Assembly (NCBI GenBank): GCA_964582465.1
Contig: CAZOQX010000001.1
Span: 17,256-81,255, forward strand
From: an uncultured Candidatus Saccharibacteria bacterium
Lineage (GTDB): Bacteria; Patescibacteriota; Saccharimonadia; UBA4664; CAZOQX01
Direction of reading: 5' to 3'
Length of the DNA: 64,000 nucleotides
The notes under the pieces were generated by a model. That model saw only the letters and a program-made list of their open reading frames with translations. It did no database searches and had not been told where the DNA came from. Both the position numbers and the translations under genes were made by a program. This document shows, piece after piece, positions 23,758 to 59,978 of this stretch (the first letter of the stretch is position 1; each line of letters opens with the position of its first letter).

Positions 23758-23832
23758 TCCGGGGTAGCTCAGCGGTAGAGCAGTTGGCTGTTAACCAATT
23801 GGTCGGAGGTTCGAATCCTCTCCCCGGAGCCA
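23758..23832 (+). tRNA. tRNA-Asn (anticodon GTT), CCA encoded
   Basis: Manual cloverleaf. Acceptor tccgggg/ccccgga. D-stem gctc/gagc. Anticodon stem gttgg/ccaat with loop cuGUUaa. T-arm ggagg-ttcgaat-cctct. 3' gCCA. Confidence 0.9.
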
Positions 23833-23842
23833 TATGGAACGG

Positions 23843-23868
23843 GAAGCCTCAACTAGGGCTTCTTTTTC
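23843..23868 (+). terminator. Rho-independent terminator after the tRNA (GAAGCC-8 nt loop-GGCTTC-TTTTT)
   Basis: Hairpin gaagcctcaactagggcttc followed by ttttt. Confidence 0.6.
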
Positions 23869-24002
23869 CTTTGTGGAGCCATTTTCTGCCATCTCGTCAC
23901 GTAAAGTTCTCTAACAGGGGGTGGGTGCATCTAGCGCCCGCCCCCTGTGCCACTACAGGGTCTTGTGGCGGTAAGCATTTCCTTGTATAGTTCTCGATTA
24001 AC

Positions 24003-24791
24003 ATGAAGTTATACAGTCCCAAAAATCATCGATGGTACGATCAGATGATCGAACGAGGGTACTCAGAAAAAAACGAAAAATACAGTGTTATCTACCCTAA
24101 CGGCAATCAATCTCAGATATTTATTCATACTCTTATTGCTACCGGTGGTAAGCGAAAGAGCATACTTGATATAGGCTGCGGTTACGGAAAGTATACCCAA
24201 ATGCTGGCGAGTAAGTATGGGGAGGTAGTAGGACTTGATTTGTCCGGAAACTCAATTGATTATGCACTGAAGCACTATTCTGCCGACAACATTAAATATA
24301 TTGTAGCTGATTCGAGCAAACTGCCATTTGCGGATTCAGCTTTTGATGTTGTTTTTAGTCGGCTTAGCCCTCATAACCTTGAAGAAATGAAACGCGTACT
24401 TAAGCCGGGCGGATTGGCGTTGTGCATGCGTGTAGGCGAAACCGACGCGCTAGAATTAAGGGGTGCTTTTGGCCAAAGACAGATGGTGACAAAAATGCAG
24501 GGCTACGTTAGGCGGGGAGAACGGCACAGTCAACATATTGTCGATGAATGGAAGAAAAATGGGTTTACCAAACTGCAGTGCAAAGAATATGAGTACGAGA
24601 TGATTTTTCGATCAACAGATGACTTAGCTAAGTATTTATCCCGTATCCCGATCGTGCCTGAGTTCAACGAGCATAATCCAGCCCACATGAAGAAGCTATC
24701 GGGTTACGTCGAGCGAACGGCAGCGACAAACCAAGGTCGGGTTATATTGCCACGGCACCGCTATATTATCGAGGGGTACAAACCGGCGTGA
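24003..24791 (+). CDS. Class I SAM-dependent methyltransferase (Methyltransf_11/25-like)
   Basis: Motif I ILDIGCGYGKYT and motif post-I VVGLDLS. Small-molecule MTase architecture. ATGA overlap with the next gene. Confidence 0.8.
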   Translation: MKLYSPKNHRWYDQMIERGYSEKNEKYSVIYPNGNQSQIFIHTLIATGGKRKSILDIGCGYGKYTQMLASKYGEVVGLDLSGNSIDYALKHYSADNIKYIVADSSKLPFADSAFDVVFSRLSPHNLEEMKRVLKPGGLALCMRVGETDALELRGAFGQRQMVTKMQGYVRRGERHSQHIVDEWKKNGFTKLQCKEYEYEMIFRSTDDLAKYLSRIPIVPEFNEHNPAHMKKLSGYVERTAATNQGRVILPRHRYIIEGYKPA

Positions 24792-25951
24792 TGGAGCTAT
24801 CTTTTAAGAACTTCAAACCCAAGCTCACTCCGGCACTAGAGAGAGCATTGCGCGACAGTTATCAACTCTCTATAGAAGACGTTGGCTTTACGGACGTGCT
24901 TTTTCAAGAACCTATCGCTTCAACAAAACATCCGCATTCGCGGTGGAACGAAGCTATCGATATTTCCGGATATGTAACAAAGAGCGTCAAATTACGATTG
25001 CCAGTCGCTAGCTCTAGTATGCCAGGTGTAACAAACTACGAAATAGCCACAAAGATTGGCGAGGCAGGTGGTTTAGCTACCTTGTCACGCGAAGACAGCA
25101 TAGAAGAATTAGAAGAGCTTATAAAAAGGCTCTGGGCATACAAGTTTCAGAATCAACCATCCAGTCCGTGGTTTGCCGGAGCAGTAGGAGTTTACCCCCG
25201 TACAGGACCAGCCGCAATCGAAAGAGTAGACAGGATGGTAAAACTTGGCGTAGAAGTGCTTTTCATTGAAACTCAGCAAGCAAATTCCGCCCTTGTCTTA
25301 GACTTCTGCAGAACTGTTAAGAATAAATACTCTAAATTGGAAGTGGTAGTTGGAGTATTCAACAGCGTGGATGGTGTAAAGAGAGCTATCGAGTCCGGCG
25401 CCGACGGTGTCAAAGTCGGCATAGGGACAGGGGATGCATGCCTAACAACAACCATGTCTGGAGTTACAAAAGGACAAGTAAACACCGTCTTTGAGCTAGC
25501 AGATTACATGAGTGGACCCCAAGCTGTGCCTGTAGTAGTAGATGGAGGCACTTCGAGCCCTGGCGGAGCCGCTATAATGATGGCCGCACTGAAAGGCCAT
25601 GGCTGTATTATGCTCGGCTCAAAGATTGCCGCTACGCTGGAGTCGCCAGCAGCCAAGATCCACAATAGTAATAACGGAATCACTTCGACCGAAGCAGTCA
25701 TAGAGGGCATGGGTTCCGAGCCTATAGCCGCAAGGCGTAATGAGCCGAAGAACCAGCGGATCCTGGAGGGCACGGTTGTTACTAGAGCGGTTGTAGAAAC
25801 GATTGGTGATTTACTACTACGCTACGAGGGGGGCTTTCGAACTGCTATGTATGGCTATCATGGTGCTTTGAGCTGGCAACAGTTGGCAGATAGAGCTGCT
25901 TTGAGTCTTAATAGTCCTGCCAATGTTATAGCTCGCTATCATGATCGCTAG
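24788..25951 (+). CDS. IMP dehydrogenase / GMP reductase-family TIM-barrel enzyme lacking the CBS subdomain
   Basis: N-terminal FTDVLFQEPIASTK...MPGVTNYEIATKIGEAGGLATL parallels IMPDH FDDVLLVP...MDTVTE...GG. The catalytic-loop-like GIGTGDACLTTT keeps the Cys. VPVVVDGGTSSPGGAAIMMAALKGHGCIMLG parallels VPVIADGGI..GDI.KALAAGA..VMLG. Confidence 0.65.
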   Translation: MMELSFKNFKPKLTPALERALRDSYQLSIEDVGFTDVLFQEPIASTKHPHSRWNEAIDISGYVTKSVKLRLPVASSSMPGVTNYEIATKIGEAGGLATLSREDSIEELEELIKRLWAYKFQNQPSSPWFAGAVGVYPRTGPAAIERVDRMVKLGVEVLFIETQQANSALVLDFCRTVKNKYSKLEVVVGVFNSVDGVKRAIESGADGVKVGIGTGDACLTTTMSGVTKGQVNTVFELADYMSGPQAVPVVVDGGTSSPGGAAIMMAALKGHGCIMLGSKIAATLESPAAKIHNSNNGITSTEAVIEGMGSEPIAARRNEPKNQRILEGTVVTRAVVETIGDLLLRYEGGFRTAMYGYHGALSWQQLADRAALSLNSPANVIARYHDR

Positions 25952-25952
25952 C

Positions 25953-26600
25953 CTATTTCTCTAAAAAATAGGCGGTGGCCTGCTTTACATGGTCAGTAAA
26001 CGGCCCCGCCGATAAATCAAAAAAAGGATATCCCTTGGATTCAGCACTTTTTGCCAGTTTTCGATTCGCCAAAACAAGTGCGTTTGCCCAAGACCTTATA
26101 TTCTCCAGAGCATTTGGGTCAAGCCGATGCCACCAATTTATCCAATCAGAGGGGGTTTTCCGGGCATGGCTCAGTATGTTCTCCACATGATTAGAATCAG
26201 TAAAGCCAACAAAAGCTGCTTTGATTTTGAACTCTTTAGACTGAATCTTACTGACCCACTCAGGGGTAATCAATTGACCTTCAATAGCCAGGTTGGACTC
26301 ATATCTTTCGTAATAACTAATAACCCCTAATATTGCTTCACGAAGTAGGTCGTGAATCTCCCCCTTTTTTGAGAAGTGCACTTTTTCAATAGGCATTCCT
26401 CGAAGATTGGTCTCAACTGACCCCTTGAAAGACGCTTTGCCAACAAGCCGGCGGAATTTATTTCCGACCAGAACGTACCTAAAGCTGTCCTCCATAGCAT
26501 CGGACGCCAGGAAGGGCATCGGTGCTTGGCTGACAACCCTTTTCATAATCGTTGATTTGCCGCTTCGAGGCGAGCCCCCCAGTAGGTAAAGCGTACGCAT
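25953..26600 (-). CDS. P-loop NTPase, kinase-like (AAA_33/zeta-toxin/CPT-like fold suspected)
   Basis: Walker A LLGGSPRSGKST at the N-terminus and a downstream acidic FLASDAM. Size 215 aa. The convergent stop is 1 nt from the IMPDH-like gene stop. Confidence 0.6.
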   Translation of the reverse strand: MRTLYLLGGSPRSGKSTIMKRVVSQAPMPFLASDAMEDSFRYVLVGNKFRRLVGKASFKGSVETNLRGMPIEKVHFSKKGEIHDLLREAILGVISYYERYESNLAIEGQLITPEWVSKIQSKEFKIKAAFVGFTDSNHVENILSHARKTPSDWINWWHRLDPNALENIRSWANALVLANRKLAKSAESKGYPFFDLSAGPFTDHVKQATAYFLEK

Positions 26601-26642
26601 AGATAAAGTTTAGCAGTGCACTTGGATATGCCATAATCATCA

Positions 26643-27482
26643 ATGATGCGAAACCTCTACAACTATGTTGTCCACGGAACACCCTCGGCGAAGGATGCGG
26701 AAGACATACTGCAAAACGGATTTAAAACCGAAGCAGGACGAGCTACTGTATCAGCTGATCTTCTATTCGCCGTCGAGGCGGCTTCTTTGCCAGAGATGAG
26801 GGAATGGAGCCGTCGAAACGCAGTGATTGAAGAAGGAGAGGTGGGTCGCGTCCTAGTTATAAAAGTTCCCAAGGAACTGGGGCTCGATTACGCAGCTGGA
26901 CCAGCCCTGGACATTGATCATAAGCTGAAAGTAATTTCGGGAGACTACCCGCGGTATCGCTACGGCGAAAGACAGTTAGCTTTTTATGGCGCTCCGAAAA
27001 ATGAAAACATTTTGGTCCGGGCGGAAAATATCCTAATCAGCCTTGAGCCTTCCTCGAAGCTTCATGATGAGCTCACTAGCCTCTGGCAGCATACTAGAAA
27101 TCTCGACCCTTTAGACTTAGAATCACTTCTCAGCAAAATAGAAACAGAGGTGATGAGCAATAGCAATAATTTTGTAGCTCAGGGTGTTGACCTCAAGTCG
27201 GTTTTTCGAGAGCTGCTCAACACTACCGTTGAGACAACCTTGAAGAATTATTTCCGGGCACTTTCTATGGATACAAAAATTGCTTTAGGTTACACGGCTG
27301 TGAGTAATGACCCCAATGTCCAGGTTAGGCCTAAGACGGTCAGTACTCTAAAGGGGCAACTAGAAGACATAAAACGAAAAAGCGAGGCCAAGGGCTTTAG
27401 GATTGTGAGCGTCGAACTGTCTGCGTACATCAAAGTAAACACCACCGAGTTGCTGGAGGAGATTCAAGACGCTACAACTTAG
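26643..27482 (+). CDS. Hypothetical 279-aa protein
   Basis: Long ORF with no recognisable motif. Its 3' end overlaps the convergent P-loop gene by 11 nt. Confidence 0.5.
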   Translation: MMRNLYNYVVHGTPSAKDAEDILQNGFKTEAGRATVSADLLFAVEAASLPEMREWSRRNAVIEEGEVGRVLVIKVPKELGLDYAAGPALDIDHKLKVISGDYPRYRYGERQLAFYGAPKNENILVRAENILISLEPSSKLHDELTSLWQHTRNLDPLDLESLLSKIETEVMSNSNNFVAQGVDLKSVFRELLNTTVETTLKNYFRALSMDTKIALGYTAVSNDPNVQVRPKTVSTLKGQLEDIKRKSEAKGFRIVSVELSAYIKVNTTELLEEIQDATT

Positions 27483-28014
27483 CTAGAAAATCGGTAGCTT
27501 CCTCCACGGTGCCAAATTTAGGAACGCCCTGTTCTCGCCACCTCATAATCCATTCGCGGTGCTTCTTGATCTCGGTTTCATCTGCTCGAATAGCATTTGG
27601 AGTTGATTCCCTCTCTCTAATCCAATTCCTGTGCGTTTCCCAGTCTGGCACGACAATTGCATCTGGTTTCAGCCACGCATTTGAGGCCCCGATTACCCAA
27701 AACCCCATTCTTTTAGCTTCCTCAGTGATAACATCGCACCTTTGTTGGATCTTCTTGATAACAGTCATGTCTTCGAGCCACCACGCTCCACCGGGATGAG
27801 CATTCGTTATTTGCCATAGTAGATCGCCATCAAGCCAGTGCCGTTCGCGCTGGGCTCTGACAAATCGAGTTTTACCACTCCCAGAAGGGGCTAGAACAAA
27901 GAGGCCTTTATTGTGGCGTACAAATTTCTGACCCAGACTTTTATATATATCCGCACCGTCTGCAAATGTAAGCGGGATGTTTAGATCGAGAAGCTTGTGT
28001 TTATCTGATGGCAT
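27472..28014 (-). CDS. P-loop NTPase, small kinase-like protein
   Basis: Walker A FVLAPSGSGKTRFV. 180 aa. Divergent from and abutting the histidine phosphatase gene. Confidence 0.55.
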   Translation of the reverse strand: MPSDKHKLLDLNIPLTFADGADIYKSLGQKFVRHNKGLFVLAPSGSGKTRFVRAQRERHWLDGDLLWQITNAHPGGAWWLEDMTVIKKIQQRCDVITEEAKRMGFWVIGASNAWLKPDAIVVPDWETHRNWIRERESTPNAIRADETEIKKHREWIMRWREQGVPKFGTVEEATDFLAKL

Positions 28015-28719
28015 ATGGGCATTTTAGCATCAATGATAGTCTCGTTTTGCTATTATGAAATAATGCCAGAAGCTAAGGTAGTTTATTTGGTGCGTCACGG
28101 CCAGAGCGTGGATAATGCGGCTCGTGTGTTTCAGTCGCCAGATTCCCCCCTTAGTGGGATCGGTCAGGAGCAGGCGAAGAAACTAGCCCAAAGGCTTTCT
28201 GGGCTTACCTTTGACGCTCTTATTAGTAGCCCCTTCGAGCGAGCCAAGGGAACAACAGCTTTTATTACTGATCGTATCGGGCTAGTCACTGAGTACTCTG
28301 AACTTTTCGTTGAGCGGCTTAAGCCTAGGGGAATCTCTGGCAGGCCTTATGCTGACAAAGAGATCCATGGATTATGGCGAAGTTGGGAAGAGAGTCTTTA
28401 TACACCAGGCACGAGAGTCGAAGATGGTGAGAATTATGATGATCTGCTCGAAAGGGCCGATAAGGCTTTGGCGTATCTCAAAAACAGGCCTGAAGAATCA
28501 ATGCTGGTTGTCACGCATGGTGATTTTCTGAGAACAGTGTTGGCTAGAGTACTGCTAGGTGAACTTTTTTCAGGAGAAGCGCTTAGAAACATTCAGAAAG
28601 TTGCACTTATTGATAACTCCGGTATTACGGCGTTACGTTTTCAGAAAGCATATGATGAAGTTGCAAGGTGGAGACTTTGGATTTATAACGACCATTCACA
28701 TTTAGCTGACCCAACTTGA
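28015..28719 (+). CDS. Histidine phosphatase superfamily protein
   Basis: VVYLVRHGQSVDNAARVF (RHG motif) and VVTHGDFLRTVLA (second catalytic His). The start may instead be the internal MPEAK Met at 28063. Confidence 0.75.
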   Translation: MGILASMIVSFCYYEIMPEAKVVYLVRHGQSVDNAARVFQSPDSPLSGIGQEQAKKLAQRLSGLTFDALISSPFERAKGTTAFITDRIGLVTEYSELFVERLKPRGISGRPYADKEIHGLWRSWEESLYTPGTRVEDGENYDDLLERADKALAYLKNRPEESMLVVTHGDFLRTVLARVLLGELFSGEALRNIQKVALIDNSGITALRFQKAYDEVARWRLWIYNDHSHLADPT

Positions 28720-28743
28720 AAATCGTACCTCAAGCCGAGCCAT
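28715..28743. repeat. 29-bp perfect direct repeat, copy 1 (cttgaaaatcgtacctcaagccgagccat)
   Basis: Identical to 30520..30548. It overlaps the stop codon of the histidine phosphatase gene. An adjacent small hairpin GGCTTA-tt-TAAGCC sits at about 28753..28766. Confidence 0.8.
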
Positions 28744-28772
28744 GTATAATTCTTGGCTTATTTAAGCCATTC

Positions 28773-30440
28773 TCACAAATTCACTATCGCTGCCTGCCCG
28801 TCCGTAAAGAACTGGTCGCCGCTAGCGTTTTTGCCAAGTTGTGGTTCTACCACTCGGAGATAAGAAATGCCCATGAGGCCGAGTGATCGAACAATATAGT
28901 CCCGTTCGGCATCAACATTGGGGTTTATATGGTGAGTTGGCAGGTAGCCTTGACTGGCCAGCTCCACACCCTCATCTAGGCTGGCCGTGGCTACCCAAAC
29001 CAACTGTCCATTGGGCGTAGCATAGTTGGTCTGCCAGAGCCTAGTATGATGGCGCTGACGTAGAGTCCGCCCACTAGTGGGTTGCTCGAAGGCAAGGTCT
29101 TGGGGTTTACCGTTCAAGTAAGAGGGCGTCACGGGAGCGGTTAAATACTGGCGGTTCTGCAGCGCCACTCCAATCGCTTTTAGGGTGTTAGCCAGGGTCG
29201 ATGGGTCTGCCTTATACCAACCGTGAGACGAGAACAACTGCTCAATTTGCTCTCTTGAGCCCAGGTAAATGAAGCTAATTGGCTCCATCCGCGTCCCGGT
29301 CAGAGTCTCACTGTATATTGGCAGAGCTTGAATGGTCGAAGCAGTTATCGCGGGTAAGGTCTGGTAATTAGGCGTGGCTGTAATTGGTTCCAGCTTAATA
29401 AAGAAAGAACTGAGCCCGATTGACCAAACAATTAACATTACCGGAATCGTAGCGAGAGCTTTTCTACCAGTTGACTGTTTTTCTCGGCTGTAAAAGCGCC
29501 GCCAGATTTCATAGCCAGTTATCAGTACGGTTAACAGGAAGCCGCCGAAGAGGATGCTGGCCAACACGTCGCTCGGATAGTGTACGCCCAGGTAAATCCG
29601 GCTTAGAGCCACCAAGCTAATTGCCACCACATAGCCTAAAACTACGGCTATTTTAGCTAAATGCGATTTGTAGGCCCGAATCAGAAAATAGGCTAACAGG
29701 CCAAATAAGACGGTAGCGCGCAGGACGTGCCCACTAGGAAAGCTGAGCGTATCCTCACGAATCAAGCTAAGGGTTTGCTCTGGCCGCGCCCGACCTACTA
29801 GGTGCTTAATGACAAAAGTGCTGACTTCTTCAAGGACAAAGGCAAGCCCAAACAGCCAGGCAGCCCCGCGCTGGCGCTTGATCCATAGCCAAATGCCTGC
29901 AAGCAGTGTCAGCAGCAAAGCTGTTTCCCAGTTAGCTAAGAAGGTCACCATTTGGAAAAAGCCGTTTTGCTGCCCACTCCGAATACTGGGTACGAGGTTA
30001 ACCACTCTTTGATCAATCCGGGTAATCCCGGTCTTTAGCACTACTTGAATTAACAACTGGAGGAATTCCGCTAAAAGGCCAGCGGCCATTATTACTCCCA
30101 CCGTCATGACTAGCCCTCGTGGTGATTTGGGATTAAGACGATCGCTAAGCCAGTTCATAACAGCTGTTTGGCGCAGCTTGCGCACGTTATCATTGCCAAT
30201 GGCACCTCGCCAGGCCGAGACTAAAACCGAGCCAATGATTTGAAGAGGTTTTCGAAGTGCTAAAACTGCTAAGTAAACCACTGTCACCAGCAGTAGATTT
30301 TCGATCAGGATGCCGAGCACAAAAACGGGCGGCGAGCTGAAGACATCGAGCTTTTTTATGAGCCAAAGGTTAAAGCCGGCCGCAAGCAGCAAACCTAGAC
30401 CGAGTAAGCCGTAGCCGGTTGTTTTAATATGGCGGTGCAT
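28773..30440 (-). CDS. PAP2-superfamily phosphatase (membrane) fused to a large C-terminal extracytoplasmic domain
   Basis: PAP2 motifs KxxxxxxRP-like (VGRARPEQ), PSGH (SFPSGHVLRATV) and SRxxxxxHxxxD (SRIYLGVHYPSDVLAS) in the N-terminal TM half. About 300 aa of non-PAP2 domain follow a further TM. Confidence 0.8.
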   Translation of the reverse strand: MHRHIKTTGYGLLGLGLLLAAGFNLWLIKKLDVFSSPPVFVLGILIENLLLVTVVYLAVLALRKPLQIIGSVLVSAWRGAIGNDNVRKLRQTAVMNWLSDRLNPKSPRGLVMTVGVIMAAGLLAEFLQLLIQVVLKTGITRIDQRVVNLVPSIRSGQQNGFFQMVTFLANWETALLLTLLAGIWLWIKRQRGAAWLFGLAFVLEEVSTFVIKHLVGRARPEQTLSLIREDTLSFPSGHVLRATVLFGLLAYFLIRAYKSHLAKIAVVLGYVVAISLVALSRIYLGVHYPSDVLASILFGGFLLTVLITGYEIWRRFYSREKQSTGRKALATIPVMLIVWSIGLSSFFIKLEPITATPNYQTLPAITASTIQALPIYSETLTGTRMEPISFIYLGSREQIEQLFSSHGWYKADPSTLANTLKAIGVALQNRQYLTAPVTPSYLNGKPQDLAFEQPTSGRTLRQRHHTRLWQTNYATPNGQLVWVATASLDEGVELASQGYLPTHHINPNVDAERDYIVRSLGLMGISYLRVVEPQLGKNASGDQFFTDGQAAIVNL

Positions 30441-30519
30441 ACCATTAAGTTTATTCTTCCTAGGCTTAATTGACGAGCTACGATAACCCGTATTGTGGCT
30501 TAACTCAAGCCGCTGGAGC

Positions 30520-30548
30520 TTGAAAATCGTACCTCAAGCCGAGCCATA
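30520..30548. repeat. 29-bp perfect direct repeat, copy 2
   Basis: Same 29-mer as 28715..28743, located in the 5' leader of the PAP2 gene. A related hairpin GGCTTAACTCAAGCC lies immediately upstream, and a local 9-mer ctcaagccg is reiterated. Confidence 0.8.
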
Positions 30549-30620
30549 AAGAACGGGAAGATACCCCAAGTCCACCTTCGGGGCTCATCAAAGCTATGCT
30601 TGTGATGTAGAATATGTGGC

Positions 30621-31676
30621 ATGAGGGTTAGGCCGAAATATTTTGGAAGTATTGCGGTTTTGGCGGTTCTTTATGTTATCGCAGCCAAATTAGGGTTATC
30701 GCTAGCATTTAGCATTAAGCAAGTCACTACCGTGTGGCCGCCTAGTGGGCTGGCTCTAGCGGCCTTGCTTCTATTTGGACTCGATCTCTGGCCGGGCGTG
30801 GCCATTGGGGCCTTTGCAGCTAACTTCCTAACTAATGAGCCGGCATGGGTGGCGGTACTGATTGCGGTTGGCAACACCCTGGAGGCCCTGGTGGGTGCGA
30901 GTCTTCTAAAACGAATCGTTGATTTTAAATCAACCTTACATCGAGTGAAGGGGGTGGTTGGGTTAGTTTTTTTGGCAGGGGTCTTAAGTACGATGGTGGC
31001 TGCCACCATTGGCACTACAAGTCTACGGCTGGGTCATTTATTAACAAGCGGAGCTCAACCGAGTGCCTGGCTTCTTTGGTGGTTTGGTGACATGACCGGA
31101 GTATTGCTCTTTGCGCCTTTTCTGCTGGTGTGGCTAAGCAATTGGCGCCAGGTTACTCGCCAAAAACTTCTCGAATTTGGCGCCTTACTTATGGGGACAT
31201 TAGTGGTGGCCGAGATTACCTTTTTTGGCCAGCTGAAGGTTTTAGGAAACCGGCCGCAGGTTACCTACTTAATTTTTCCTTTCGTGATTTGGGCCGCTTT
31301 CCGTTTTAGACAGCTGGGCGTGACGGCGGTTAGCTTAATTACAGCTACTGTGGCGATACTTGGAACGATCAACGGCTTCGGCCCTTTTCTGGGGGTAGGG
31401 ACACCGCAGCAACAGCTGGTTACCCTACTGCTTTACATCATTTTCATGACCATCAGTGGTCTGTTGATGGGTGTGGCCGTGTTGCAGCGCGATAACTCCG
31501 AATCCAAGCTTGTGCAGCAAGCAGCCGCCCTACAAAAAGCCCGCGGCAAAATCTTAAAGGAACTTAATGCTAAATCGGCTAACGAGGAGCGCCTTGAGGC
31601 TTCGAATGAGCGAATTACGAGCATACTCAGCCACTTGCTAGAGGAAAACCCCACTCGGCCCACCTTTAAAAAGTAA
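30621..31676 (+). CDS. MASE1-domain integral membrane sensor-like protein with C-terminal coiled coil and no output domain
   Basis: N-terminal ...KQVTTVWPPSGLALAALLLFG matches the MASE1 signature (VTPIWPPSGIALAALL). About 8 TM helices. The C-terminal ~70 aa are helical and charged. Confidence 0.6.
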   Translation: MRVRPKYFGSIAVLAVLYVIAAKLGLSLAFSIKQVTTVWPPSGLALAALLLFGLDLWPGVAIGAFAANFLTNEPAWVAVLIAVGNTLEALVGASLLKRIVDFKSTLHRVKGVVGLVFLAGVLSTMVAATIGTTSLRLGHLLTSGAQPSAWLLWWFGDMTGVLLFAPFLLVWLSNWRQVTRQKLLEFGALLMGTLVVAEITFFGQLKVLGNRPQVTYLIFPFVIWAAFRFRQLGVTAVSLITATVAILGTINGFGPFLGVGTPQQQLVTLLLYIIFMTISGLLMGVAVLQRDNSESKLVQQAAALQKARGKILKELNAKSANEERLEASNERITSILSHLLEENPTRPTFKK

Positions 31677-31691
31677 CAACCACCAGACGAG

Positions 31692-31958
31692 CTAGGCCCG
31701 CTTTAGCTTATCTCGATGAAGGCAGCCAGCCCAACAACATGGGCGGCGTATGCCCTCAAGTAGTTCCATGCGCGTTCGCTCGACATGCTGGCTCCTTGTT
31801 TCCGGCTTCTTGACGGACACAACCCAGCAGATCCATTCATTGCGGGCCAGTGGCGTGAGATCTTCCCATGCCGCTTGCACATCCGGGTCAGACACTAAAG
31901 CTCTTTTTAAATCTGCCGGAACGTCGTGTACAACCCCGTCGGAAATTTTTGTAATCAT
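31692..31958 (-). CDS. YdeI/OmdA-family (bacteriocin-protection-like) small protein
   Basis: WICWVVSVKKPETRSQHVERTRMELLEG resembles the YdeI/OmdA WIxxAKKxETRxRRI...L motif. Confidence 0.55.
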   Translation of the reverse strand: MITKISDGVVHDVPADLKRALVSDPDVQAAWEDLTPLARNEWICWVVSVKKPETRSQHVERTRMELLEGIRRPCCWAGCLHRDKLKRA

Positions 31959-38696: not shown

Positions 38697-38975
38697 TTAG
38701 CGGTGAAAGTTAGTCTTGGGGCGGTCTTCCATCGGGCGGGCGTTGCCCACGATGATGGTGCGACCACTGATGTCTTTGTTGTTCAAGCCAGCAATAGCAG
38801 CTTGAGCTTCTTTCTCATCCGACATTTCCACAAAGCCGAATCCTTTGGATTGGCCGGAGAATTTGTCGGCAATGATGGTAGCAGTTTCAACTGTGCCGTA
38901 TTCGGCGAAAAGATCTTTTAGTTCTTGTTCGGTAGTCGAATAGGGTAGTTTGCCTACATATAGCTTGTTAGCCAT
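38697..38975 (-). CDS. RRM-type RNA-binding protein
   Basis: RNP-2 KLYVGKL and RNP-1 KGFGFVEM. Confidence 0.85.
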   Translation of the reverse strand: MANKLYVGKLPYSTTEQELKDLFAEYGTVETATIIADKFSGQSKGFGFVEMSDEKEAQAAIAGLNNKDISGRTIIVGNARPMEDRPKTNFHR

Positions 38976-49399: not shown

Positions 49400-49558
49400 A
49401 GCAGCTGACTAAGTTTTAAATTAAGCAGCTCGAGAGCCGCTTAAGATATTGTTGTATCTTTCTAGTAATAAATCATCTATACTATCTTGCGTAGTTTCTT
49501 CGGCCGCAAGGTTCACGAAGAAGGGTCGAACTAACCAGTAACATTGAGCAGGAACAGT

Positions 49559-49828
49559 ATGGCAAAAAATCTATTTGTAGGAGGCTTGGCCTGGGCAACT
49601 TCGGACGAAAGTCTGCAAGCGGCCTTTGCTGAAGCTGGCACGGTTACATCTGCTAAGGTCATCACTGACCGCGCGACCGGGCGTTCCAAGGGTTTTGGCT
49701 TTGTAGAAATGGCCACCGACGAGGAAGGCGACAAAGCGATCGAACTCTTGAACGGCAAGGAAATCGATGGTCGAGCAATCAGTGTGTCCGAGGCCCGTCC
49801 CAAAGAAGACTCCGACAACAACCAATAA
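49559..49828 (+). CDS. RRM-type RNA-binding protein
   Basis: RNP-2 LFVGGL and RNP-1 KGFGFVEM. Start taken at MAKNLFVGGL. The ORF track offers 49544. Confidence 0.85.
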   Translation: MAKNLFVGGLAWATSDESLQAAFAEAGTVTSAKVITDRATGRSKGFGFVEMATDEEGDKAIELLNGKEIDGRAISVSEARPKEDSDNNQ

Positions 49829-55936: not shown

Positions 55937-56095
55937 ATGTCTAAATACAGCAAAAAAGCTCAAGAGAAAGTCGGAAAAGCTCTGCACGAGCACAAGCACG
56001 ACGATAAATATGAGAGTCGAGAGCAAGCCGTTGCGGCCGGCCTAAATCAGGCTCGCCGCGCCGGAGCTAAAGTGCCAAAGAAGAAGGGCAAGTAA
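55937..56095 (+). CDS. Small basic protein (52 aa) translationally coupled to ku
   Basis: AGGAGAA SD 6 nt upstream. MSKYSKKAQEKVGKALHEHKHDDKYESREQAVAAGLNQARRAGAKVPKKKGK. The stop TAA overlaps the ku ATG (TAATG). Confidence 0.4.
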   Translation: MSKYSKKAQEKVGKALHEHKHDDKYESREQAVAAGLNQARRAGAKVPKKKGK

Positions 56096-56940
56096 TGCGC
56101 TCCATCTGGACAGGCTCCGTCAGCTTCGGGCTCGTTAATATCCCAGTGCGGCTTTATAGCGCCACGAGTGGCACAGGCCTCGATTTTTCTTTGCTGCACA
56201 AAAAGGATTTGAGTCCTATCAAGTATTCGCGGGTTTGTCAGAATGAAGGCAAGGAAGTGCCTTATGTCGATATTGTAAAGGGCTACGAGTACCAAAAGGG
56301 CGAGTATGTCGTAATTGACGATGCGGACTTTGAGCGCGCTAGCGCCAAGAAAACGCGCACGATCGACATTACTGAATTTGTCCAGGAAGAGGAGATCGAC
56401 CCGCTTTACTACGAAAAGCCGTACTTCCTGGAGCCAGAAAAGGGGGCGGCTAAATCCTACGCGCTTTTGCGCGAGGCGCTTGGTCAGTCGCACAAGGTCG
56501 CAATTGCTAAATTTGTATTGCGCAATCGAGAGCACTTGGCGCTAATCAAGCCCGAAGGCCAGGTGCTGGCGCTAGTGCAGATGCGTTTTCAAAGTGAACT
56601 GCGCACGCCATCTGGCTTGAACTTGCCCGCTCGTGACGAGGCGAAGGGGCGCGAGGTGCAGATGGCGCTGGCCCTAATCGATCAATTAACGGAAAACTTT
56701 AGCCCCGAGGACTACCATGATACTTATACTGAGGAGCTTGAGAAGGTGATCGAGGCTAAACTTGCGGGCAAACAACCGGCCAAGCTGGGGCAGGCACCCC
56801 GCCCGGTCCAGGTGGGTGATTTAATGGCCGCGCTCAAGGCTTCACTCGAACAGGAAGTTACGCGCACACCGAAGCGAGAATTAGTTTTCCGCGAAAAAGT
56901 TGAGCCTAAGAAGCAAAAACCAAACCGCCGTAAATCTTAA
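56095..56940 (+). CDS. ku: Ku protein (NHEJ DNA end-binding)
   Basis: MRSIWTGSVSFGLVNIPVRLYSAT is the canonical bacterial Ku N-terminus. Basic C-terminal tail. Confidence 0.9.
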   Translation: MRSIWTGSVSFGLVNIPVRLYSATSGTGLDFSLLHKKDLSPIKYSRVCQNEGKEVPYVDIVKGYEYQKGEYVVIDDADFERASAKKTRTIDITEFVQEEEIDPLYYEKPYFLEPEKGAAKSYALLREALGQSHKVAIAKFVLRNREHLALIKPEGQVLALVQMRFQSELRTPSGLNLPARDEAKGREVQMALALIDQLTENFSPEDYHDTYTEELEKVIEAKLAGKQPAKLGQAPRPVQVGDLMAALKASLEQEVTRTPKRELVFREKVEPKKQKPNRRKS

Positions 56941-56965
56941 GCAGCTTATTGCTATAATACTTGTT

Positions 56966-57421
56966 ATGGAACAAAGCGAATGCACCTTTTGCGCCCTGCA
57001 ATACCAATCCGATAATCCAGATATAGTATTTGAGGATGACCGAATAATCGTGGTGCTCGATCCCGATTGGGTAGTCAAGGGCCACACGCTAGTGATTTGG
57101 AAAAAACATTACGAAACCGCCTCGGAACTGCCCCAGGACGACTTTCGCTACTTTGCCGATATGCTCTACCGAACTGAGAAGGCGGTTATGCGTATAGCTG
57201 GAGGAAAGAAGGCAGTAATTCTAGAAAGCGGTATTCTCATCCCTCATTTTCACATGCACGTTTACCCCATTCAGGATAGTCTAATGGGTGTGGACATGAG
57301 CCAATATTTGATTGGCCTTATCAATAAGGCGTTTAAATACGAGCCCAAAGTGGGCGAGCGCGACTTGTTAGTTTACCAGCTGCGCTCAGCGCTTTCACCA
57401 AAGCCCTACGGTTCTAATTAA
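56966..57421 (+). CDS. HIT-family (histidine triad) nucleotide hydrolase/transferase
   Basis: Zn-finger-like CTFCAL and a HIT motif HFHMHVYP. Start taken at MEQSECTFC. The ORF track offers 56900, which overlaps ku. Confidence 0.7.
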   Translation: MEQSECTFCALQYQSDNPDIVFEDDRIIVVLDPDWVVKGHTLVIWKKHYETASELPQDDFRYFADMLYRTEKAVMRIAGGKKAVILESGILIPHFHMHVYPIQDSLMGVDMSQYLIGLINKAFKYEPKVGERDLLVYQLRSALSPKPYGSN

Positions 57422-57473
57422 TTTGGCGACTTCGCCATTGCGAGGTGTCTCAAACCCGTGGCATGCTTGAGTC

Positions 57474-59978
57474 ATGCCGCTAGAAAAATACCAGTCGAAG
57501 CGTTATTTCGGTCGTACGCCTGAGCCAGCTGGTGGGCAGGCGCAGGGTCGAGGACAGTTGCGGTTTGTAGTGCAGAAGCACCAGGCTTCTAGATTACACT
57601 ATGATTTTAGGTTGGAGGCGGGGGGAGTCTTAAAAAGCTGGGCTGTGCCCAAGGGGCCTTCATTAAACCCGGCCGACAAGCACCTCGCCATGATGGTTGA
57701 AGACCACCCTCTTGACTATAAAGATTTTGAAGGTGTGATTCCAAAAGGTAACTATGGCGCTGGCACCGTGATGATCTGGGACGAAGGTACATTTGAAGCG
57801 CTAGAGGCGAAAAGCCGACCCGAAAGTGAGCGGGCGATTCTGAACGGGATTAAGAAGGGTCACATAACTTTTATCTTGAATGGCCAGAAGCTGAAGAATG
57901 AGTTCGCTCTGGTGAAAATTAAGAATGCTAAAGAAGAAAATGCTTGGCTGTTAGTAAAAAAAGATGATCAATCTGCTTCAAGGAGCGACATAACCAAAAA
58001 AGATCGGTCGGCCCGGACCGGCCGCACCATGGAGGAGATCAGCCAATCAGCCAACAAATGGCTACGAGAGCCCCAAGTGCCAGATCTAAGCGATGCACCC
58101 AAGAGCAAAATGCCGCACCTGGTTAAGCCCATGCTCGCGAAGCTTGTGGCAGCACCGTTCGACCGAGAGGACTGGTGGTTTGAGATCAAATGGGACGGCT
58201 ACCGCGCCGTAGCTGAGGTTGACCATGGTCAGGTTGAACTTTACTCGCGCAATCACCTGTCGTTTAATGCCAAGTTTCCCACGGTTGCAACTGAGCTAGC
58301 CAGCTTAAAGCTGCAAACCGTTTTGGATGGTGAGGTAGTGGTGGTTGATGAGTCCGGCCGACCTGATTTTCAGTTGCTTCAGAACTTTTTGCGTGGCGCC
58401 GGTGGGCGGCTGGTTTATTATGTTTTCGATATCTTGTATTTGGAGGGCCACGACTTGCGTAGTTTGCCGCTTTGGCGCAGGCGCCAAATTCTTCAGGCCG
58501 TTTTGCCGCCCGAGCTGGAAATGGTTAAGGCGAGCGACAATGTTTATGAGCGCGGAACGGAGTTCTTTCAGGTCGCTATCGCCAAAAATCTGGAGGGTGT
58601 TATAGCCAAGGACGTCAATTCGCCTTATCGAGAAGGCAGGCGGTCGGGTGAATGGCTCAAAATTAAGGCGCACGCGAGACAAGAAGCGATCATCGTCGGG
58701 TTCACCGAACCCAGAGGCGGCCGCAAATATTTCGGAGCATTGGTCTTGGGTGTCTACAGTCATGGTGAGCTGGTTTACATTGGTCATACTGGTTCGGGAT
58801 TTAGTGAGCAGTTCTTGGCCGAGCTCTACCAAAAACTAAAGAGTATTGAACAAGAAAAGTCGCCGTTTAAGATCCGGCCTAAAACCAATGCGCCGGTCCA
58901 CTGGGTGAAACCAAAGCTGGTTTGCGAAATTAGCTTTGCGGAATGGACCGACGAGGGGCAGATGCGTCAACCGATTTTCGTTGGGTTGCGGGAAGATAAG
59001 GCGGCTACTAAGGTTAGGCGCGAATTACCCAAGACCGAGCCGGTGTTTCGAGAAACCCTGGAAAGCCCAAGCGAACTTATTATCTCGGGGCGCAAGGTAA
59101 GACTCACCCACCTGGATAAGGTTTATTGGACCGATGAAGGTTACACGAAGGGGGACTTGATTAACTACTATCGGCAGGTGGCCGATTACATTTTGCCATA
59201 CTTGAAAGATCGGCCGGAGTCGTTGCACCGCCACCCCAACGGCATAAAGGGGGATAGCTTTTTTCAGAAGGACATGGCCGATCAGGCGCCAGAGTGGGTG
59301 AAGACTGAGCTGATGCATTCGCAGAGTGAGGAGCGCGATGTTAATTATTTGGTCTGCCAAGATGAGGCTACGCTTGTCTACATGGCGAATCTTGGTTGCA
59401 TCGAAATTAACCCCTGGCTAAGCCGACTGGACAATTTGGATAAACCCGATTTTTGCGTGATCGACCTCGATCCTGAGGGCATTGATTTTAAAGCGGTGGT
59501 CGAAGTCGCCCAAGCAGTTCATACATTGCTCGAGCAAGCGAAGATTGAAAATTACTGCAAGACTTCCGGCGCCACTGGCCTACATATCTTCGTCCCGCTC
59601 GGTGCTAAATATTCCTACGATCAATCAAAACAGTTCGCGCAGATTATTGCCACGTTGGTTAACCGGCGTCTGCCGAAAATTACTAGTATCGAACGCATGC
59701 CAGCGAAGCGCCAGAAGCGGGTCTATTTAGATTATTTGCAAAATCGGGTCGGGCAAACTTTGGCATCGGTTTACTCAGTCAGGCCTAGACCTGGCGCGCC
59801 GGTTTCGACCCCTCTTAAGTGGGAAGAGGTAAATAATAAATTGGATGTGACGGCTTTCAATATTAAAACTATTGCGCCTCGCCTGAAGAAGGTCGGAGAC
59901 TTGTGGCGGCCGGTAGCCTCAGGCGACGGGGTTAACCTTAAGCAGGCCTTGGCCCAGCTCGCCAAACTGGAGGATTAG
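57474..59978 (+). CDS. ligD: Multidomain ATP-dependent DNA ligase LigD (3'-phosphoesterase - ligase - polymerase/primase)
   Basis: N-terminal PE domain (LRFVVQKHQASRLHYDFRLE). Ligase motif I KWDGYR with upstream PMLAKL. C-terminal LigD-Pol/primase domain. Pseudomonas-type domain order. Confidence 0.9.
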   Translation: MPLEKYQSKRYFGRTPEPAGGQAQGRGQLRFVVQKHQASRLHYDFRLEAGGVLKSWAVPKGPSLNPADKHLAMMVEDHPLDYKDFEGVIPKGNYGAGTVMIWDEGTFEALEAKSRPESERAILNGIKKGHITFILNGQKLKNEFALVKIKNAKEENAWLLVKKDDQSASRSDITKKDRSARTGRTMEEISQSANKWLREPQVPDLSDAPKSKMPHLVKPMLAKLVAAPFDREDWWFEIKWDGYRAVAEVDHGQVELYSRNHLSFNAKFPTVATELASLKLQTVLDGEVVVVDESGRPDFQLLQNFLRGAGGRLVYYVFDILYLEGHDLRSLPLWRRRQILQAVLPPELEMVKASDNVYERGTEFFQVAIAKNLEGVIAKDVNSPYREGRRSGEWLKIKAHARQEAIIVGFTEPRGGRKYFGALVLGVYSHGELVYIGHTGSGFSEQFLAELYQKLKSIEQEKSPFKIRPKTNAPVHWVKPKLVCEISFAEWTDEGQMRQPIFVGLREDKAATKVRRELPKTEPVFRETLESPSELIISGRKVRLTHLDKVYWTDEGYTKGDLINYYRQVADYILPYLKDRPESLHRHPNGIKGDSFFQKDMADQAPEWVKTELMHSQSEERDVNYLVCQDEATLVYMANLGCIEINPWLSRLDNLDKPDFCVIDLDPEGIDFKAVVEVAQAVHTLLEQAKIENYCKTSGATGLHIFVPLGAKYSYDQSKQFAQIIATLVNRRLPKITSIERMPAKRQKRVYLDYLQNRVGQTLASVYSVRPRPGAPVSTPLKWEEVNNKLDVTAFNIKTIAPRLKKVGDLWRPVASGDGVNLKQALAQLAKLED

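Follow-up and report, generated by a model that had tools for sequence, protein, structure and literature searches.

The 64,000-nucleotide stretch of contig CAZOQX010000001.1 analysed here (assembly GCA_964582465.1, positions 17,256 to 81,255; hereafter the window) carries two adjacent genes that form an autonomous, co-inherited bicistronic unit. The first encodes a class I S-adenosylmethionine (SAM)-dependent methyltransferase and the second a CBS-less oxidoreductase of the IMP dehydrogenase (IMPDH)/GMP reductase (GMPR) superfamily, referred to below as the IMPDH-like protein. This protein retains the fold and catalytic residues of its superfamily, and a set of substitutions in its active site is conserved throughout a small family of relatives. 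The chances are judged to be about even that the pair is a horizontally mobile operon whose products work in sequence on a single purine nucleotide-like metabolite; any specific product is proposed with less confidence than this.

The IMPDH-like protein and its active site

Pfam analysis of the IMPDH-like protein showed a match to the IMPDH/GMPR family (PF00478, E = 6e-48, residues 54-378), and Foldseek found its fold closest to solved IMPDH/GMPR structures, with no GMPR among the top 50 matches. The CBS pair is absent: no match to PF00571 was found with Pfam, and in the alignment about 25 residues stand in place of the Bateman module of about 120 residues of canonical IMPDHs. Family membership and the missing CBS pair, as given in a preliminary description of this locus, are thus borne out by Pfam, fold match and alignment.

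None of the curated models of the superfamily reached its cut-off with this protein. IMPDH model TIGR01302 gave 136.8 bits against a cut-off of 481.5 (28%), and the other two IMPDH models gave 105.6 vs 779 and 78.5 vs 585 bits. Scores were also low for the GMPR models TIGR01305 (GMP_reduct_1; 80.2 vs 492 bits), TIGR01306 (GMP_reduct_2; 49.1 vs 466) and NF003470 (77.9 vs 397), for the GuaB1 models (75-93 bits against cut-offs of 549-675, the GuaB1-type GMPR model giving 92.9 vs 675) and for the GuaB3 model TIGR01304 (32.6 vs 342.1). On the IMPDH model, a bona fide IMPDH (P0098) scores 507 bits, and the CBS-less IMPDHs that are the nearest outgroups score 313-440 bits. The Escherichia coli GuaC sequence used as a control was validated by a score of 709 bits on GMP_reduct_1. 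By these scores the protein is neither GuaB nor GuaC, in agreement with the earlier view that it has no clean orthology to either.

BLAST comparisons of GMPR with IMPDH gave 139-178 bits (32-36% identity), those of the IMPDH-like family with IMPDH 102-118 bits (26-32% identity) and those of the family with GMPR (E. coli GuaC) 65 bits (24-27% identity). Judged by sequence, the family therefore stands farther from IMPDH than GMP reductase does, as a deep separate branch with IMPDH as its nearest relative. The preliminary description had likened the protein to GMP reductases; the likeness holds only for the missing CBS pair and the missing flap dyad (see below), but overall both sequence and fold are closer to IMPDH.

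The active site was examined in an alignment of the 16 family members, in a joint alignment of 31 sequences that includes canonical IMPDHs and in a comparison with 149 outgroup sequences (148 IMPDH/GMPR representatives and E. coli GuaC). The motifs GIGTGDAC and DGGTSSPGG quoted in the preliminary description are present (Table 1). Residues C217, T219, D251-G-G, G276, G306, S309 and E326-G327 are invariant in all 16 members and common to canonical IMPDHs; within the family S277 does not vary either and M307 and G308 hardly do, and mean column identity of the family is 74%. The Cys/Thr/Glu triad (C217, T219, E326) is invariant in the 31-sequence alignment as well, where D251, G276-S277, M307-G308 and G327 vary little or not at all. 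The equivalent residues Cys319, Thr321 and Glu431 have been described as the ancestral machinery common to IMPDH and GMPR and required in both, while Arg418-Tyr419 on the mobile flap is the IMPDH-specific device for hydrolysis of the covalent intermediate E-XMP* (Min et al. 2008, PMC2525682). The family has no Arg-Tyr dyad, and the flap of the IMPDHs compared is longer than its own by about 5-10 residues. Except in P0016, the motif A-[RK]-R-[GN], whose A-[RK]-R may be equivalent to Arg418, stands in place of the dyad. The dinucleotide motif is recognisable, IETQQANS aligning with IDSSHGHS, and its Glu for Asp and Thr for Ser are conservative changes; in Vibrio cholerae IMPDH the Asp and Ser of this type of motif hold the ribose and pyrophosphate of NAD (PMC4342496).

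Several motifs that are near-fixed in the 149 outgroups are altered in every member of the family: GPGSIC-TTR is replaced by GTGDAC-LT[ST], YRGMGS by IEGMGS, SxxMDTVT by SSSMPGVT, MLGSLLAG by MLGSKIAA and DGGIRYSGD by DGGTSTPGGAA, the last with a two-residue insertion. GSIC and YRGMGS are the commonest forms in the outgroups (60 of 149), against GDAC and IEGMGS in the family. In every family member the Ser two residues before the catalytic Cys has become Asp215; at this position the commonest outgroup loop variants have Ser and less often Ala, Tyr or Phe, with Asp in none of those listed. From IMPDH structures, this Ser and the Tyr of YRGMGS are presumably the residues that form hydrogen bonds with the 5'-phosphate of IMP. 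The active-site substitutions noted in the preliminary description are thus real and invariant throughout the family. They suggest that the 5' end of the substrate may be bound differently, Asp and Ile replacing Ser and Tyr, with a new Glu and Lys nearby. From the remodelled 5'-phosphate pocket and Cys loop we infer an altered substrate, probably one other than plain IMP or GMP.

The methyltransferase, gene coupling and distribution

The protein encoded by the upstream gene matches Methyltransf_11 (6.3e-21, 75.3 bits) and Methyltransf_25 (3.9e-20, 72.8 bits) above the Pfam cut-offs. Its SAM-binding motif I, LDIGCGxGKY, is invariant in the methyltransferase family, and residues of about 150-262 form a family-specific C-terminal lid. 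In an AlphaFold 2 model of the protein (mean predicted local distance difference test score of 88), all top PDB matches were class I methyltransferases. The best NCBIfam model was NF008300 (RlmA), with 74.5 bits against a cut-off of 303 and with model positions 83-237 only. RlmA(I) (PDB accession no. 1p91) was the top structural match (template modelling score 0.63, 21% identity) and the third-best PDB sequence match. RlmA has an N-terminal Cys4 zinc finger that this protein lacks, residues 1-58 having no Cys. The resemblance gives a weak hint, by analogy, that the acceptor could be a purine nitrogen. The NCBI-sourced form of the methyltransferase has 248 amino acids and starts 14 codons after position 24003 (omitting 24003-24044); this annotated start is probably wrong and that at 24003 is favoured, because W11, Y12 and D13, all upstream of the 248-residue start, are conserved among homologues (Y12 and D13 being invariant).

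The methyltransferase stop codon TGA overlaps the start of the IMPDH-like gene, by 1 nucleotide if this is the ATG at 24791, as in the 386-residue NCBI-sourced protein P0001, or by 4 nucleotides if it is an alternative GTG at 24788, which would give 387 residues (ORF 24788..25951). The preliminary description was right about the positions of the two ORFs and about an overlap of stop and start, but the ATGA that it quoted is in fact GTGATG.

A methyltransferase gene lies immediately 5' of the IMPDH-like gene in nine of the eleven loci with a readable upstream side. Eight paired loci are intact (the window, which is L006; L001/2/3/12; L004; L005; L008; L009; L011; L013), and the gaps between the two genes in the measurable ones, including the window, are -1, +4, +1, +4, -1, +22 and +3 nucleotides. 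In the ninth, L016, an insertion sequence with DDE transposase genes (L016 1005-3517) separates the methyltransferase gene from the first codons of its IMPDH-like partner. Sigma-70-like promoters of the type TTGAC(T/A)-17-TATATT were seen just 5' of the methyltransferase gene in L001, L005, L011 and L013. No riboswitch or leader RNA was found 5' of the operon with Rfam, which returned tRNAs only. Methyltransferase-IMPDH fusions were absent among the long proteins of the 150 best representatives; these long proteins carry RNase H, phosphoribosyltransferase, intein or duplicated IMPDH domains.

Both families are rare. A word-indexed search of 5.8 billion clusters returned 16 proteins of the IMPDH-like family at 51-100% identity, followed by a cliff to canonical IMPDHs at no more than 33%, and 19 clusters of the methyltransferase family at 48-100% identity, followed by a cliff to 29%; several of the methyltransferase clusters are on contigs equal in length to those of the IMPDH-like proteins. 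An exhaustive HMMER profile search of 1.84 billion representatives at 50% identity gave two IMPDH-like family representatives (742 bits, and a 209-residue fragment with 333 bits), the next score being 156 bits. One genome for each of 185,579 GTDB species, a set that excludes the window's own genome, was scanned using the family alignment; none of the 43 pattern matches was confirmed, and the pair is therefore absent from these representatives. Contigs from JGI metagenomes gave five loci, mostly already known from the other searches. No member was found in viral contigs (IMG/VR), and these gave no sign of a phage-borne pair. LexA, which this contig also encodes, has over 4000 relatives (E <= 1e-20) against these 16 and 19 clusters, and the pair is therefore regarded as accessory and not housekeeping.

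The identities of the two proteins correlate between loci (r = 0.92; eight loci, 28 non-independent pairs). Functional coupling is supported because the upstream adjacency recurs in nine of eleven loci, the two families match in rarity and in contigs, their identities co-vary and the surroundings of the pair differ from locus to locus. The preliminary proposal of a functional pair is upheld by these data, and a survey of the kind that it called for shows that the adjacency is neither due to chance nor unique to this genome. No description of an IMPDH-methyltransferase pairing, of a link between SLOG proteins and IMPDH or of relevant purine genes in Saccharibacteria was found in the literature searched.

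Neighbouring genes and genomic setting

Apart from the pair itself, no gene near it is common to the window and the related loci, which also differ from each other, and no partner besides the methyltransferase approaches universality among the loci. In the window, the IMPDH-like gene is met by a convergent gene for a P-loop protein of 215 amino acids. Its matches to AAA_33 and CPT (both E = 0.014) are below the cut-off and give it a weak likeness to small-molecule kinases; no homologue was found in the other loci and its membership of the system is uncertain. Beyond it are genes for an orphan protein of 279 amino acids, another P-loop protein and a histidine phosphatase. The window proteins of 215, 279 and 180 amino acids had no above-threshold sequence match in Pfam, NCBIfam or PDB and no homologue in the related loci, and no tie between them and the pair was found.

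In five of the eight loci with a visible downstream side (L001, L004, L005, L008, L010), the convergent and nearly abutting gene encodes a Pol-beta-type nucleotidyltransferase (NTP_transf_2) of about 257 amino acids. The convergent gene ends 0-12 nucleotides from the IMPDH-like gene, or overlaps it by 35 nucleotides. The exchange of P-loop protein for nucleotidyltransferase looks like a non-orthologous replacement at a fixed position. Beside the nucleotidyltransferase, genes in three loci pass the cut-off for the coenzyme F420-0:L-glutamate ligase CofE (197.9 vs 180.65 bits, NCBIfam; PDB match to CofE with E = 3e-36). An F420-type ligase would be unexpected if the contigs bearing CofE belong to bacteria of the candidate phyla radiation (CPR); these contigs are linked to the window by the gene pair only. 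In L009 the pair is accompanied by a NUDIX hydrolase gene and one for a MoaA-like radical SAM enzyme, and HhH-GPD proteins are encoded near IMPDH-like genes in relatives. In L007 (851-7386) the gene for P0016, at 51% identity the most divergent family member, overlaps and is translationally coupled to LOG/SLOG genes (of nucleotide-nucleosidase type) on either side, and radical SAM/SPASM enzymes and an orphan protein of 499 amino acids are encoded around it; this is a different, possibly larger nucleotide-modifying cluster. The common theme of the neighbours in the relatives is nucleotide chemistry. A search against PADLOC-DB 2.0 for defence systems gave only a generic methyltransferase-domain match (mad2) and a 15-bit match (mad8), and no match for the IMPDH-like protein.

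Table 1. Positions of the gene pair, its motifs and flanking features in the window, and of selected features in related loci
Feature	Position	Strand	Remarks
tRNA-Asn(GTT)	23758..23832	+	ARAGORN; Rfam 72 bits
Terminator-like hairpin and T-run	23841..23874	+	After the tRNA, separating it from the operon; consensus scan only
Class I SAM-dependent methyltransferase gene	24003..24791	+	262 amino acids; ORF list and Pfam
SAM motif I, LDIGCGYGKYT	24165..24197	+	Sequence check
Gene junction GTGATG	24788..24793	+	Read from the sequence (CCG GCG TGA TGG AGC)
CBS-less IMPDH/GMPR-superfamily oxidoreductase gene	24791..25951	+	386 amino acids from ATG
Catalytic Cys loop GIGTGDACLTT	25418..25450	+	Cys217 (codon 25439-25441) and Thr219 kept
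DGGTSSPGG	25541..25567	+	Ribose-binding Asp251 and Gly-rich phosphate loop; sequence and alignment
GMGS...ILEGT	25706..25774	+	Purine-contacting Met-Gly, flap and invariant Glu326; alignment
Convergent gene for 215-residue P-loop protein	25953..26600	-	Stop 1 nucleotide from the stop of the IMPDH-like gene
Convergent junction, window	25949-25955		
Convergent junction, L001	11182-11195		
Convergent junction, L005	11185-11186		
Convergent junction, L008	2121-2155		
Convergent junction, L010	1287-1299		
CofE-type gene, L001	12080-12868		
CofE-type gene, L005	12065-12847		
CofE-type gene, L008	2996-3769		

The host is a bacterium of the Saccharimonadia, within the CPR: the best named relatives of LexA, encoded 440 nucleotides upstream, are from Candidatus Saccharimonadia and other Patescibacteria (70-76% identity). 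The gene order RfbB-VanW-LexA, tRNA-Asn, OmdA is kept in two related contigs (L017, L019), and the cargo between tRNA-Asn and OmdA differs in all three genomes (window 23758-31958; L017 6583-9934; L019 12884-15433). Extra genes also occur between LexA and the tRNA in two relatives. Guanine-plus-cytosine (GC) content, otherwise 0.52-0.58, drops to 0.44-0.48 between the tRNA (about 23.8 kb) and about 28.9 kb, and the pair makes up the first two genes of this variable lower-GC region, of which tRNA-Asn is the conserved edge. Since neither an att-like direct repeat of the 3' end of tRNA-Asn nor, among the ORFs and Pfam matches, an integrase near the tRNA was found, the region is regarded as a variable hotspot beside a tRNA, and its description as an integrated island was dropped.

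Other features of the window were also recorded. A perfect 29-nucleotide direct repeat, CTTGAAAATCGTACCTCAAGCCGAGCCAT, is located at 28715-28743 and 30519-30547, flanking a gene for a membrane protein of 555 amino acids (28773..30440, minus strand); its first copy overlaps the end of the histidine phosphatase gene. The repeat may be an insertion or duplication footprint or a shared regulatory element. Adjacent ORFs at 56095-59978 encode a Ku-like protein (281 amino acids) and a multidomain LigD-like protein (834 amino acids), recognised by eye from their N-termini; the two would provide a small CPR genome with a pair for non-homologous end joining. Two small genes for RRM-type RNA-binding proteins (38697-38975 and 49544-49828) are 41-49% identical to one in L009.

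Proposed function and relation to known enzymes

If both enzymes act on one purine nucleotide-like metabolite, Cys217 would attack C2 of the purine ring and form a covalent adduct of the E-XMP* type, as in IMPDH and GMPR. A hydride would pass to or from a nicotinamide dinucleotide (NAD(P)(H)), and the adduct would be resolved by the ancestral Thr219-Glu326 proton relay and not by the Arg-Tyr flap of IMPDH. SAM-dependent methylation would fall on the substrate or, more probably, on the 2-oxo, N1 or N3 face made by the redox step, so that the net product would be a nucleotide or nucleoside of the xanthine or guanine type that carries a methyl group. In a fuller version of this scheme, which is put forward as a speculation and judged unlikely, the family is a separate and undescribed catalytic branch beside IMPDH and GMPR, a surviving enzyme of ancestral type that performs covalent C2 chemistry with Cys, Thr and Glu only, on a substrate other than a plain 5'-phosphorylated purine nucleotide. 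With the methyltransferase it would make a methylated 2-oxopurine nucleoside or nucleotide (for example of the methylxanthosine or 2-methoxypurine type), used by Saccharimonadia episymbionts as antimetabolite, signal or modified building block, and the interchangeable neighbour, kinase or nucleotidyltransferase, would activate or detoxify it.

Several observations weigh against a joint action of the two enzymes on a purine nucleotide. The gene for the most divergent IMPDH-like protein (L007) has no adjacent methyltransferase gene, none occurs within the 102 nucleotides of upstream sequence in L010, and in L015 a methyltransferase gene stands alone among transposase genes with no IMPDH-like partner; the two enzymes can thus exist apart. 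(In the metagenomic contig L015, as in L016, insertion sequences disrupt the module; two inverted copies of DDE_Tnp_1_6 lie beside the lone gene, L015 1070-4608.) All members come from related metagenomic lineages, and inherited synteny contributes to the conservation of the pair. The consequences drawn for the pocket come from the alignment and from background knowledge of IMPDH structures, and an Asp in the phosphate pocket could mean a non-nucleotide substrate. The likeness of the methyltransferase to RlmA is weak, and generic small-molecule N-, O- and C-methyltransferases match it about as well.

Other explanations were weighed against these data. The IMPDH-like protein could be a fast-evolving housekeeping GuaB without CBS domains, making XMP for GMP synthesis next to a methyltransferase that is an unrelated neighbour by inherited synteny. 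Its closest relatives in sequence and fold are indeed IMPDHs, CBS-less IMPDHs are common among the nearest outgroups, CPR proteins are frequently divergent and the Thr-Glu pathway alone hydrolyses E-XMP*, though slowly (PMC2525682). Ordinary CBS-less IMPDHs nevertheless score far higher on the IMPDH model, E. coli GMPR is closer to IMPDH than this family is, and the Arg-Tyr dyad and near-invariant residues of the substrate site are lost. The gene occurs in 16 clusters only and in none of the GTDB representatives, in contrast to the lineage's LexA with its thousands of relatives; the gene also lies in a variable low-GC region, and the methyltransferase family is equally small in distribution and co-varies with it. 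The explanation is considered improbable. Scarcely better placed, though a little less improbable, is an enzyme of the GMP-reductase type that reductively removes a C2 substituent (turning, for example, GMP or N2-modified GMP into IMP) as part of purine salvage by a symbiont unable to make purines, the methyltransferase acting elsewhere. The GMPR models, BLAST against the validated GuaC and the Foldseek matches all speak against it, and the near-obligate, co-varying methyltransferase is left unexplained. The least probable, and by some way an outside chance, is a non-purine substrate or a non-catalytic regulatory or scaffold paralogue like the poorly understood GuaB3 proteins: the catalytic Cys, Thr and Glu and the ribose-binding Asp are invariant in a family that is strongly conserved overall, whereas mycobacterial GuaB3 has no conserved catalytic Cys loop (PMC9790621), and the GuaB3 score is far below its cut-off. 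Housekeeping GuaB, plain GuaC and a GuaB3-like pseudoenzyme were rejected on these grounds.

A different possibility, unlikely but to be taken more seriously than these, is that the two genes belong as a module to a larger system, one of conflict or one that makes a nucleotide-derived secondary metabolite (for example a signal or a toxic analogue of a nucleoside), in which variable partner enzymes phosphorylate or nucleotidylate the product or set it free as a base, some of them for self-protection. The Pol-beta nucleotidyltransferase in the convergent position in five of eight loci is in favour of this, as are the kinase-like P-loop protein at that place in the window, followed by the second P-loop protein and the histidine phosphatase, the LOG/SLOG and radical SAM/SPASM genes around the most divergent member and the island-like locus. 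Against it, PADLOC gave no meaningful defence match, viral contigs had no member, no partner besides the methyltransferase is common to all loci and the kinase likeness is below threshold.

Among known enzymes, IMPDH (GuaB; TIGR01302, PF00478) is the best match in sequence and structure, especially in its natural CBS-less bacterial forms. The family shares with it the (beta/alpha)8 barrel, the Cys with a Thr two residues later, the Asp of DGG, the GS and MG motifs, the bacterial-type Glu in xEG and the dinucleotide motif. It differs in its low identity (26-32%), in the absent dyad and the shorter flap, in family-invariant changes (Asp for Ser, Ile-Glu for Tyr-Arg, MPGVT for MDTVT and ETQQANS for DxAHGHS), in a truncated C-terminus, an N-terminus about 20 residues longer and an inserted PHSRWN, and in its dedicated methyltransferase partner and extremely narrow distribution. 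The likeness to GMP reductase GuaC is one of architecture only (no CBS pair, no flap dyad, the Cys/Thr/Glu triad, PG in the DGG loop and a short C-terminus), and GuaC is less similar to the family than IMPDH is (80 and 49 bits on its models; 65 bits by BLAST). We know of no methyltransferase partner of guaC. GuaB1, the actinobacterial GMP reductase with CBS domains, is a paralogous branch of the superfamily, and the family lacks these domains. GuaB3 (IMPDH-related protein 2) belongs to the same superfamily and is also without CBS domains, but the Cys loop that is not conserved in mycobacterial GuaB3 is kept in the IMPDH-like family (PMC9790621).

Alignment of the methyltransferase with the 23S rRNA guanine-N1 methyltransferases RlmA(I) and RlmA(II) extends over its Rossmann core and some of its C-terminal region; unlike these enzymes, the protein has no N-terminal zinc finger, and its score is far below the cut-off. 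Precedent for recruitment of the scaffold to modified purine nucleotides is given by ToyE and TubD, GMPR-like enzymes of the pathways of 7-deazapurine nucleoside antibiotics; these differ in being close relatives of GuaC and in being encoded in Streptomyces clusters with many other genes. The scaffold and chemistry as such are known, while the branch, the active-site remodelling and the dedicated methyltransferase are undescribed in the literature searched.

IMPDH and GMPR are familiar from textbooks and serve as drug targets, and to our knowledge no third catalytic solution on their scaffold is usually recognised. That the methyltransferase is a near-obligate partner points to a purine modification not yet described. 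A separate conserved branch would be a natural test of the Thr-Glu pathway as the ancestral mechanism (PMC2525682). The hosts belong to the CPR, bacteria that rely on hosts of their own for their nucleotide economy and have accessory genes of which almost none is characterised. The two-gene module is small enough for heterologous expression and bears on both the catalytic evolution of IMPDH and GMPR and the nucleotide metabolism of the CPR.

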